Source of the DNA: Candidatus Latescibacterota bacterium
GTDB taxonomy: Bacteria > Latescibacterota > UBA2968
DNA length: 64,000 nt
Reading direction: 5' to 3'
NCBI GenBank assembly: GCA_965116885.1
Contig: OZ220741.1
Span: 1,728,001 to 1,792,000 of the forward strand
Below the pieces are notes generated by a model, which made no database searches, was not told the origin of the DNA, and was given only the letters and a program-made list of their open reading frames with translations. Position numbers and translations under genes: made by a program. Shown here piece after piece: positions 16,301 through 17,604 of this stretch (the first letter of the stretch is position 1; each line of letters opens with the position of its first letter).

Positions 16301-16638
16301 ATCTGGTAGAGATTGTAGAGGAGAGCGAGGATCAGACGGTTGTGGCGTTTATCTGTCAGGACGGCAAAAGCGTGGAGGTGAAACTGGTCAGGCCAGGTAT
16401 TGGTGTTGCAAATCTGGATTTTGATGGAGACGGTGCGGTTGGGTTCACGGATTTTTTGCTCTTTTCCAGCAAATTTGGTCTGTCGGAGGGGGATGCGGGT
16501 TTTGAAGCACAATACGATCTGGATGGTAATGGTATGGTGGGGTTCAGCGATTTTCTGATTTTTGTACAGGGATTTGGCAAACCAGTGAGTGGAAAACCCG
16601 TTGCTCTCCGGAATGGAGGAGAAAGATTGGGGTCGTGA
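13366..16638 (+). CDS. Chondroitinase ABC-like polysaccharide lyase (PL8) with a C-terminal dockerin/EF-hand-like tag
   Basis: LNFTGWRA, DQGWAEGS, IKPDYTGFHHRGIY..AY, GRYLSYGS, GWDWSMWPGTT, AYLDHG motifs; C-terminal DFDGDGAVGFTDF..YDLDGNGMVGFSDF. Confidence 0.88.
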   Translation: MMDLRRWIIIFAGGVIGMVNAAMAQNTPWRYDFEALSGSYRADAGSQVSLSTRRYKGGAQSLKWAWQNNGRIVFTDPAPGRSEVLIGFRAWVYNEEALDEVLTFGFGTESELSANNPRYQFEFGLNFTGWRAMWIHLREDARNNSYTGPRNGRVTAFEIRAPNSGAVYLDLIELVERIDSRRSPDAQVPFVNGGANTSGDKTREYRWSLNRLPGPLPSQITDDERRAFETIARRYEAWVLGDGVKNDQREPVRIRLNELTAYIRRGHSNLANYEIRRENDLILGKPLFAARSSYRPYFQSVFQNVLLRLVLDYRLNGNEEARDRVIDVFDYLHDQGWAEGSGVGALHHEFLRIASYAHAVYLMRDILEDTERLERELASLKWYSMFGELYEQTWDPGTNADFLRSVAMYRLLCILMMDDSPEKVANMRRYVVWLNNALDIAPGWLDTIKPDYTGFHHRGIYANAYAPNAFHVASVLVYLLHDTPFAVGDEKRDNLKQALLTSRIMANTYDISTAINGRFPLNTTVTDGLLPAYMYVALSYPSVDAELSGAFMQLWKPDSQLLIEGLFEQVASRIMYLHTPGAMQMMADFASAGYAPVAEPSGHWTLPYGALSIHRRADWMVSMKGWSKYVWDYESSVGGENPLGRYLSYGSMLIYASGNPVGREASGIVRDGWDWSMWPGTTVIRLSHEQLKHEGRDRNFSDETFVGGVNIEGQNGVFALKLHDTRFNTSFRAVKTVFCFDDVLVCLGSGIENDDGGHTTVTPLFQAAISEDRSTGVNGERVHAIPYTFSGIERQRAWLMDSRGNGYVIPDGEGLQVQRRVQTPGDFGNEGGTGAFELAYLDHGSAPQGASYHYAVLVQRSPDRVRVFANAPEYDVWQRDGQAHIVRHRGMKMTGYALFDKDARPTGGPVESVSLPSLVMSREVDDGLLLSVADPDFGWRWEIQTPHRQDGSLIVNQPSEPRKVEVIVRGKWRLDQSYDLVEIVEESEDQTVVAFICQDGKSVEVKLVRPGIGVANLDFDGDGAVGFTDFLLFSSKFGLSEGDAGFEAQYDLDGNGMVGFSDFLIFVQGFGKPVSGKPVALRNGGERLGS

Positions 16639-16656
16639 TAGTTTGAAGTCACCAAT

Positions 16657-16691
16657 AAAAAAAGCCGCCACACAATGTGGCGGCTTTTTTT
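16657..16691. terminator. Bidirectional intrinsic terminator
   Basis: A-run GCCGCCACA-caa-TGTGGCGGC T-run between convergent genes. Confidence 0.85.
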
Positions 16692-16968
16692 ATTCCTTAG
16701 AATGCGACTTGTCCCAAATGGGTTTTACTTTTTCGATAACTTCGGCATCGGTCGGACTGGATGCGACGATGTTTGTAAATTCTTCAGCTTCAACCCCAAG
16801 TTCCTCCAGGAACTTTCGGTCAGCTGGTCACGGATAGACGTAGTCACCGATGCAGCCTCGCAACTTGGCGCGGGCTTTATCTGTAATGCGCGGGAGCCAG
16901 GGCATGTCGCCCATGTAAAGCTGACGGCTGCGCGGTCTAAAATCAACAGCGGAACTGAGTTTGTCCAT
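16690..16968 (-). CDS. DUF5069-like small protein, predicted selenoprotein (in-frame UGA at codon 47)
   Basis: Manual translation: MDKLSSAVDFRPRSRQLYMGDMPWLPRITDKARAKLRGCIGDYVYP(UGA)PADRKFLEELGVEAEEFTNIVASSPTDAEVIEKVKPIWDKSHSKE*; AAGGAGGG RBS; SECIS-like hairpin follows the UGA. Confidence 0.8.
16785..16827 (-). promoter_or_regulatory. Bacterial SECIS-like hairpin
   Basis: mRNA after the UGA: C-CAGCU-GACC-GA-AAGUUCC-UGGA-GGAACUU-GG-GGUU-GA-AGCUG; apical loop with G at position 2, 19 nt after the UGA. Confidence 0.7.
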
Positions 16969-17031
16969 TTTTCATATCCCTCCTTGTGTTGTGATAGTTA
17001 AAACATAGTGATTTTGGCGATGGATAGCAAG

Positions 17032-17604
17032 TTAGAAAGTGAGGGTGTATGTGCTCAATGTTGTGTCGCCGTATTTTTTTTGTCGGGAGAGGGTGAGCTT
17101 GGAAAAGGATTCTGGTAGCGGTGTGCGAGAGGTGTGTTGGACGAGAACGCGGGCGTTGGGAGCGAGTATCGGAATTGTTGCGAGGCGGGTGAGTATCGCG
17201 CAGGACATGGGGTGTCCGCCTAATTGTTGTTGGTAGGGAGGATCGAGGTATATGATGTCAAATATGGAACGGGACCGCACGAGTTGGGGCAAGAGTTTTT
17301 GCGCGGGACGCGCGTAAAGATAGATGCGATCGTTGAGATGCCAATTGTCTATTAGCTGTGCGATGAAGCGGTTGCAGCGGCGGTCGGGTTCGTTGATGAC
17401 CACCTGCGCACCGCGGCTACAGGCTTCGAGGCCGATTTGACCCGAGCAGGAGAAGAGGTCGAGGAAATAACTGCCGCAGAGGATTTCGCCGAGGGAAGAG
17501 AATACGGCTTTTTTGACAAAGTCGGATGTGACGCGGGCATTGCCGTACTTTTTGTTGTTAAAGGGGATGCGGCGGCCCTTAAATTCCCCAGCGATGATGC
17601 GCAT
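17032..17604 (-). CDS. rsmD: 16S rRNA m2G966 methyltransferase (RsmD family)
   Basis: MRIIAGEFKGR, LDLFSCSGQIGLEACSRGA, IYLDPPY, KKYGDT. Confidence 0.85.
   Translation of the reverse strand: MRIIAGEFKGRRIPFNNKKYGNARVTSDFVKKAVFSSLGEILCGSYFLDLFSCSGQIGLEACSRGAQVVINEPDRRCNRFIAQLIDNWHLNDRIYLYARPAQKLLPQLVRSRSIFDIIYLDPPYQQQLGGHPMSCAILTRLATIPILAPNARVLVQHTSRTPLPESFSKLTLSRQKKYGDTTLSTYTLTF

Follow-up and report, generated by a model that had tools for sequence, protein, structure and literature searches.

The locus investigated here raises the question of whether an in-frame TGA triplet terminates translation or is decoded as an amino acid and, in the latter case, as which one. It lies on the minus strand of the window, i.e., the complete stretch of 64,000 nucleotides under study, where ORF calling with translation table 11 halts at the TGA and returns only an N-terminal piece of 46 residues (16828..16968). 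When TGA is translated as U, the frame yields a protein of 92 residues with a single in-frame TGA, U at position 47 and a terminal TAA codon. A Shine-Dalgarno-like site precedes the ATG codon, another stop codon is located in frame two codons further 5', and the TAA codon is followed by a G+C-rich hairpin (16684-16667) and a T-run (see the table below). All of this agrees with the sequence-only reading of the region, which had described a 92-residue read-through protein that is missed by the standard ORF track, preceded by a ribosome-binding site and followed immediately by a terminator. Based on comparative sequence analysis, we put the probability that the predicted gene encodes a DUF5069 selenoprotein decoded by SelB with the help of a SECIS element at roughly 93%.

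Features of the predicted selenoprotein gene and its surroundings, with positions given in window coordinates
Feature	Position	Strand	Basis
Short-form DUF5069 selenoprotein CDS, 92 residues (predicted)	16690..16968; ATG 16968-16966, TAA 16692-16690	-	Translation and PF16798 match on both sides of the TGA
UGA as selenocysteine codon, residue 47 (predicted)	16828..16830	-	Same column holds TGA or a Cys codon in orthologues
Shine-Dalgarno-like site AAGGAGGG	16978..16985	-	Read directly from the sequence, 9-10 nt before the ATG
Apical SECIS stem-loop (predicted)	16798..16815; 5' arm 16815-16809, loop UGGA 16808-16805, 3' arm 16804-16798	-	Fold and conservation
Lower SECIS helix	16785..16826; 16826-16818 pairs with 16795-16792 and 16789-16785	-	MFE structure
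Intrinsic terminator (hairpin and T-run), common to the convergent lyase gene	16657..16684	-	Stem 16684-16667, mirror image on the plus strand
RsmD-family methyltransferase, 63 nt upstream, possibly in the same operon	17032..17604	-	PF03602 at 131 bits
Polysaccharide lyase family 8, 1090 residues	13366-16638	+	Lyase_N, Lyase_catalyt and Lyase_8 domains
TPR-repeat protein, 854 residues	17616-20180	-	Weak GWxTD-domain match, 19.6 bits, below cut-off
Glycyl-tRNA synthetase alpha-beta fusion, 1018 residues	21667-24723	-	tRNA-synt_2e, tRNA_synt_2f and DALR_1 domains

The proposed assignment of the read-through protein to the DUF5069 family proved correct. The protein matched the Pfam profile PF16798 with a score of 61.2 bits (cut-off 27), and the two halves did so separately (28 bits for the N-terminal half; 19.2 bits, E 0.0015, for the C-terminal half), so that the similarity runs across the UGA. 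In a six-frame search of the window's own genome, the gene scored 56.2 bits, and the matching stretch included one TGA. Residues 12-85 align to positions 4-77 of the 133 in the profile, short of the full domain; the protein, which ends at residue 92, is a member of a short-form subfamily, for which full-length Cys homologues of 86-94 residues exist. No family of NCBIfam release 20.0 matched it at E values of up to 1. In the protein atlas, a query with the natural Cys homologue P0002 led only to DUF5069 clusters, with scores of 0.86-0.88 that have the standing of leads.

A search of 1.84 billion representative proteins (E <= 0.001) returned 415 relatives. Alignment of family proteins to a profile of close homologues gave 195 domain instances, including 182 with a residue at column 47; this residue was Cys 142 times, Ser 20 times and Trp five times. 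The UGA is thus found at a conserved Cys position, just as the sequence-only reading had held. Asp50, shared by the window protein, is present in 175 of the 182 DUF5069 domains with a residue at that column, and the family signature G-[DE]-Y-x-[YF]-P-C-P-x-D recurs in the window protein with U at position 47. The five proteins with Trp at this column (P0003-P0006 and P0012) otherwise show the features of the TGA forms, and their sources evidently translated TGA as Trp. Another 12 database proteins stop exactly at ...YP (P0023, P0030, P0032, P0038, P0043, P0044, P0053, P0086, P0094, P0121, P0134 and P0176), indicating that their gene calls halted at the UGA. Since gene callers either cut the gene at residue 46 or insert Trp, the public databases lack this protein, which is conserved in several uncultured phyla, or hold it in a wrong form. 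The source names of the proteins concerned never mention selenium.

The abundance of such truncated calls and the halt of table 11 ORF calling at the TGA could also be taken to mean that the locus is a pseudogene or the product of an assembly error, with a disabling or miscalled TGA that leaves only a 46-residue remnant or no product at all. A six-frame search of 61 genomes (the window's own and 60 relatives) identified a full-length orthologue in 53 of them, with exactly one in-frame TGA in 50 cases and none in three; the other genomes contained fragments at contig ends (G022) or matches at the level of paralogues, and one (G055) gave nothing. Forty of these loci were fetched, with protein identities between 50% and 99%. 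At the column of the window's TGA, within the context Y-[VI]-[YF]-P-[U/C]-[PGS]-A-D, 37 of them carry TGA and the remaining three a Cys codon, TGC or TGT. A public scan with one genome per species found 236 relatives, and the best 80 of these loci contained TGA (61) or a Cys codon (19) at this position. Judging by record titles, they come from Candidatus Latescibacterota, Candidatus Poribacteria, Gemmatimonadota and, in one case, Opitutales; the nearest relatives of the window's gene are titled Latescibacterota. The sequence-only reading had asked for UGA-containing orthologues elsewhere and for assurance that the UGA is not peculiar to this assembly; both were obtained, and the recurrence of the same TGA down to about 50% identity speaks strongly against a disabling mutation or a miscall.

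The substitution pattern points in the same direction. Among 68 distinct Sec-form sequences, the mean difference at third codon positions exceeds that at first and second positions both 5' of the TGA (0.548 versus 0.234 and 0.155) and 3' of it (0.619 versus 0.344 and 0.260), and none of these sequences contains an additional in-frame stop. Coding-type substitution on both sides of the TGA, combined with the lack of extra stops, excludes both a pseudogene and an assembly error. In addition, the TGA is retained in RNA-library contigs from at least three studies. As judged from sequence comparison, this explanation is already contradicted, and we would rate its probability as practically nil.

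The contigs in question derive from RNA libraries labelled as sponge metagenomes, are 90-99% alike to the window and bridge the UGA, spanning positions 16679-16985 (X1), 16696-16969 (X7) and 16703-16917 (X5 and X6). No difference is listed for them at 16828-16830 or in the hairpin core at 16801-16815. The 17 differences that are listed comprise 15 at third codon positions, one synonymous change of CGA to AGA and one exchange of Val44 for Ile. The contigs represent close relatives rather than the window's strain, the uncovered parts of the 501-nt stretch are uninformative, and contigs do not reveal strand or ends. In view of their origin from relatives and a possible carry-over of DNA, we count them only as consistent with transcription. 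X5 and X6 are assigned to different studies and years; their contigs agree exactly in length, depth and listed differences, and a double deposition of the same data is probable.

A quick maximum-likelihood protein tree with 80 rows (79 loci and the window sequence) and 72 alignment columns was built, which leaves out one locus containing N (L130) and in which many forks are unresolved. At least five changes between Sec and Cys are needed to explain this tree, and well-supported branches force at least three of them. Two Cys forms fall within an otherwise exclusively Sec-containing clade of 18 rows (support 96) that includes the window's gene. Within the window's own genus, two species have exchanged TGA for TGC (L044 and L046, from the genomes of L078 and L080), and in each of them the stem of the hairpin described below is broken by a single synonymous change (AAG to AAA and GAG to GAA, respectively). 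This pattern looks like the decay of a SECIS element soon after a switch from Sec to Cys. The combination of a uniform hairpin in Sec forms with its decay in Cys forms of a single genus provides a clean natural experiment on the constraints acting on SECIS elements.

In bacteria, SECIS elements are intragenic and read by SelB, the prototype being that of E. coli fdhF, and a consensus with numerical criteria for bacterial SECIS elements has reportedly been formulated by Zhang and Gladyshev. The DUF5069 gene shares with these elements a UGA, a stem-loop at a short fixed distance from it and guanosines in the loop. The perfect 7-bp stem with a UGGA loop that had been noted earlier is indeed present: the hairpin, AAGUUCC-UGGA-GGAACUU, forms seven pairs and starts 12 nt after the TGA, with the loop beginning 20 nt after it. 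Conserved guanosines in the SECIS loop are also indicated by a figure legend in PMC2398784. Folding of a 76-nt segment gave a minimum free energy of -23.7 kcal/mol and a z-score of -2.58, with 3 of 200 shuffled sequences folding as well, so that the hairpin by itself is only mildly unusual and derives its significance from the comparative data. A permissive Rfam search of positions 16400-17200 produced 44 matches, all of them below the gathering score, nearly all centred on the terminator hairpin and none to a SECIS family.

The hairpin overlaps the conserved peptide F-L-E-E-L, and part of its conservation is therefore protein-level. Our argument draws on synonymous sites and on how Sec forms differ from Cys forms. 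In the 37 Sec orthologues, codons +5 to +9 (AAG-UUC-CUG-GAG-GAA) show no synonymous variation at all, with UUC, CUG, GAG and GAA each used in 37 of 37 sequences and AAG in all 30 that encode Lys, whereas codon choice is almost free for the invariant residues that flank this core. The mean third-position difference amounts to 0.012 within the core, compared to 0.55 upstream and 0.62 downstream of it. The motif (G/C)UUCCUGGAGGAA(C/G), i.e., (G/C)UUCC-UGGA-GGAA(C/G), was found in 97 of 97 TGA loci and in none of the 22 Cys loci. These 119 loci combine two overlapping samplings; by distinct sequences, the core is present in 62 of 62 Sec forms and in none of 20 Cys forms. Three Cys forms still encode F-L-E-E, using other codons or containing a broken pair (AAA before UUC in L044, GAA-GAA in L046, CUC-GAG-GAG in L113). 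Cys forms can thus retain the peptide and still lack the core, which shows that the nucleotide-level conservation goes with Sec and not with the peptide. This conservation in Sec forms and its loss in Cys forms support the SECIS-type hairpin postulated on the basis of the single sequence.

Covariation was analyzed in an alignment of the 62 distinct Sec-form segments. In the apical stem, four pairs are constant. Pair 21-34 shows a compensatory double change, with G-C in 60 sequences and C-G in two, and pair 20-35 appears as A-U (41), G-U (8) or U-A (7), or is unpaired (6). The UGGA loop is invariant in all 62, and RNAalifold independently predicted an apical stem of six pairs. In the lower helix, pair 12-45 joins two synonymous sites and occurs in five standard pair types (C-G 15, U-A 14, A-U 13, U-G 3, G-C 2, G-U 1, unpaired 14). 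The covariation score of 0.134 compares with 0.042 for shuffled alignments, none of 500 reaching the observed value, and does not exceed 0.054 when the partners are slid. Poribacteria-titled sequences have not retained the lower helix, and pairs 10-47, 11-46 and 12-45 are each unpaired in 14 to 15 of the 62 rows. Compared to other bacterial SECIS elements, the apical element of the DUF5069 genes is unusually uniform, with 14 nt identical in 60 of 62 distinct sequences titled as belonging to several phyla, and it also provides the codons for F-L-E-E.

Given the modest advantage of the hairpin's own fold over shuffled sequences (z -2.58), one could imagine that the 46-residue peptide is the real product, that the hairpin acts as a regulatory element or attenuator, and that the conservation 3' of the TGA reflects a separate small gene. 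Yet the 3' part has neither its own start codon nor its own ribosome-binding site, and every orthologue keeps it in frame with the 5' part. Moreover, the Cys forms consist of one uninterrupted ORF (L044, L046 and L067; P0002 and others), and a single DUF5069 domain, together with the fold of PDB entry 3omd discussed below, spans the junction. Taken together, these points make a functional 46-residue peptide extremely unlikely.

If the codon is translated, it could in principle be decoded by a route other than selenocysteine insertion, either because UGA has been reassigned to Trp or Gly or because near-cognate read-through inserts Trp or Cys. The five database proteins with W at column 47 might seem to favour such a scenario, even though they evidently result from the translation of TGA as Trp. 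However, TGA terminates 13 of the 32 ORFs of at least 300 aa in the window, which argues against a general reassignment. Furthermore, the residue encoded by the 22 non-TGA loci is invariably Cys and never Trp from TGG; Trp or a non-conserved residue would have spoken against the original proposal. The tight association of a dedicated hairpin with the TGA forms is equally difficult to reconcile with non-Sec decoding.

The same is true for the genetic equipment of the organism. Its genome, a single contig of 5.56 Mb, encodes selA (580 bits) and an adjoining selB (385 bits), as well as selD (369 bits), which itself contains one in-frame TGA, and tRNA-Sec (70 bits), located beside selD. All four scores exceed the curated cut-offs, so that the Sec machinery, whose absence would have undermined the original proposal, is encoded in full. 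The SECIS element of selD comprises a 7-bp stem 13 nt after the UGA and a GGU loop and matches the DUF5069 hairpin of the same genome in spacing, stem length and loop guanosines. With a complete Sec machinery and a second gene that combines a UGA with a similar hairpin, decoding of the DUF5069 UGA as anything but Sec appears very unlikely. The selD gene (C1:607506-608627; L014, L017) is a selenoprotein gene in its own right, with the motif VSCGG-U, and tRNA-Sec follows about 100 nt downstream on the same strand.

Selenocysteine insertion at the DUF5069 locus very probably proceeds as follows. The SECIS element inside the coding sequence, composed of a stem of 6-7 bp with a UGGA loop atop a more variable lower helix, would recruit SelB and Sec-tRNA(Sec) to the mRNA, enabling the ribosome to read the UGA at codon 47 as selenocysteine. 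The predicted product is an all-helical short-form DUF5069 protein of 92 residues. In it, Sec would stand where the family motif G-D-Y-x-Y-P-[U/C]-P-x-D otherwise has its near-invariant Cys, directly before helix 48-57.

An AlphaFold2 model built on a 93-sequence alignment (mean pLDDT 88.4) shows a short beta hairpin and helices at residues 25-37, 48-57, 61-69 and 74-89, with residue 47 immediately preceding the second of these helices. The only structural relative, and the one solved member of DUF5069, is PDB entry 3omd, an uncharacterised protein of Leptospirillum rubarum, which aligned with the model at a Z-score of 12.5 and an rmsd of 2.2 over 85 residues in VIA-align and at an E value of 1.2e-4 and a TM score of 0.77 in Foldseek. 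Apart from this entry, Foldseek gave nothing at E <= 0.001 against the PDB (next best E >= 2.5), and VIA-align gave nothing above Z 4.2 among 48,161 chains. As both searches led only to 3omd, we draw no functional analogy from structure. The two proteins share the same domain and fold, but 3omd is of the Cys type, with the motif G-E-Y-T-Y-N-C-P-L-D in place of G-D-Y-V-Y-P-U-P-A-D, and has a length of 145 residues as opposed to 92 in the window protein.

The near-invariant residues of the family are P12, R13, R27, D30, K31, R33, A34, G41, C47, D50 and D74. There is no second conserved Cys that could serve as a resolving partner: C39 is restricted to the window's genus, and T, N or R takes its place in other lineages. 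We infer that residue 47 acts as a single nucleophilic selenol at the N-terminus of a helix. The use of Sec is among the strongest signs of a catalytic or redox-active residue that can be obtained from sequence, and it likely marks residue 47 as the active site of DUF5069. Assuming that the protein is real, the odds that Sec47 is a redox-active nucleophile recycled by an external thiol are about even. Against this functional assignment we counted the missing resolving Cys, a fold that is not thioredoxin-like, gene neighbours that vary from phylum to phylum, and heterogeneous fusion partners. The main alternative, a metal- or ligand-binding site formed together with Asp50, appears less likely. 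It is tempting, if somewhat doubtful, to regard DUF5069 proteins as a new class of small all-helical, non-thioredoxin-like enzymes or carriers characterized by a Cys or Sec residue at a helix N-terminus, an adjacent invariant Asp and a cluster of invariant Arg and Lys residues. If so, the repeated choice of Sec would mean that this residue performs redox or chalcogen-transfer reactions of a demanding kind, for which no structural precedent is known. With a solved structure at hand in 3omd, the presence of Sec makes DUF5069 a testable case at Cys/Sec47.

In line with the earlier impression, the literature and inventories searched do not treat DUF5069 as an established selenoprotein family. The literature that we searched makes no mention of DUF5069 or PF16798, and neither name is included among the 119 families and subfamilies in Table 1 of a review from May 2026 (PMC13188914). 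The deep-Sep supplements (PMC12013277) contain neither these names nor YPU motifs, and the same applies to the accessible part of the BSepDB supplementary file (PMC13326102). Further selenoprotein candidates come from Deng et al. 2026 (Cell Rep), as far as the citation in PMC13188914 indicates. Searches for '3OMD' returned only unrelated uses, and those for selenoproteins in Latescibacteria nothing relevant, among the matches listed. Of the GOS families, GOS_A of PMC2398784 has the motif GEPUAKFL and is thus another protein, and GOS_B and GOS_C rest on NCBIfam models, none of which matches the window protein.

As predicted from comparative data, DUF5069 is an uncatalogued bacterial selenoprotein family, new within a well-known kind of system. 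The evidence for it is of the same type as that for other predicted single-Sec families listed in PMC13188914 (DUF523, DUF1573, DUF3179 and GOS_B), comprising a Sec/Cys pair, a SECIS element and TGA-containing orthologues, and its status as a prediction is likewise the same. However, most families in that list are thioredoxin-like or contain CxxU or UxxC motifs, whereas the DUF5069 selenoprotein is all-helical and has a lone Sec. The list of bacterial selenoproteins would thus gain an entry on a non-thioredoxin fold. The lineages using Sec in this protein are uncultured and, judging by the titles of the RNA runs, in many cases associated with sponges.

The genomic surroundings of the gene differ between lineages. 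Of the best 80 public loci, 33, none of them titled Poribacteria, encode an RsmD-family homologue upstream of the DUF5069 gene and on its strand, and this adjacency may reflect nothing but inherited gene order. In Poribacteria-titled loci, by our reading of the sequences, the gene downstream is instead PheA-like and the one upstream encodes a large membrane protein. No neighbour shared across phyla was found among the best 80 loci. In the window, the polysaccharide lyase gene converges on the DUF5069 gene, with a common terminator between them, and the D-x-D-G-N-G repeats at the C-terminus of the lyase are presumably dockerin-like or calcium-binding. The TPR protein, with its repeats in the N-terminal region, adjoins the RsmD-family gene upstream on the same strand, and its position is kept in the window's genus (14 of the best 80 loci). 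A second group of Latescibacterota-titled loci has a homologous glycyl-tRNA synthetase ORF of about 1066 residues near the DUF5069 gene.

Among 23 longer family members, fusions to Cupin_2 were found three times, and those to a NuoF-like FMN/4Fe-4S module, a methyltransferase, an AI-2E transporter and a dienelactone hydrolase once each. These partners are too heterogeneous to assign a function, with the NuoF fusion giving a weak hint at a redox role of DUF5069. The window's genome itself contains three further DUF5069 domains. Two of them are arranged in tandem in a 284-residue paralogue (C1:3354777-3355592; L025 1063-1917), in which only the second has the Cys (YDCPID), and the third is part of a 148-residue protein without Cys. 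The ORF following the tandem gene contains a GAGVSTASGIPDFRG motif, by which we take its product to be Sir2-like. In relatives, the frames matching the tandem protein comprise about 435 residues, and representatives with three DUF5069 domains exist as well.
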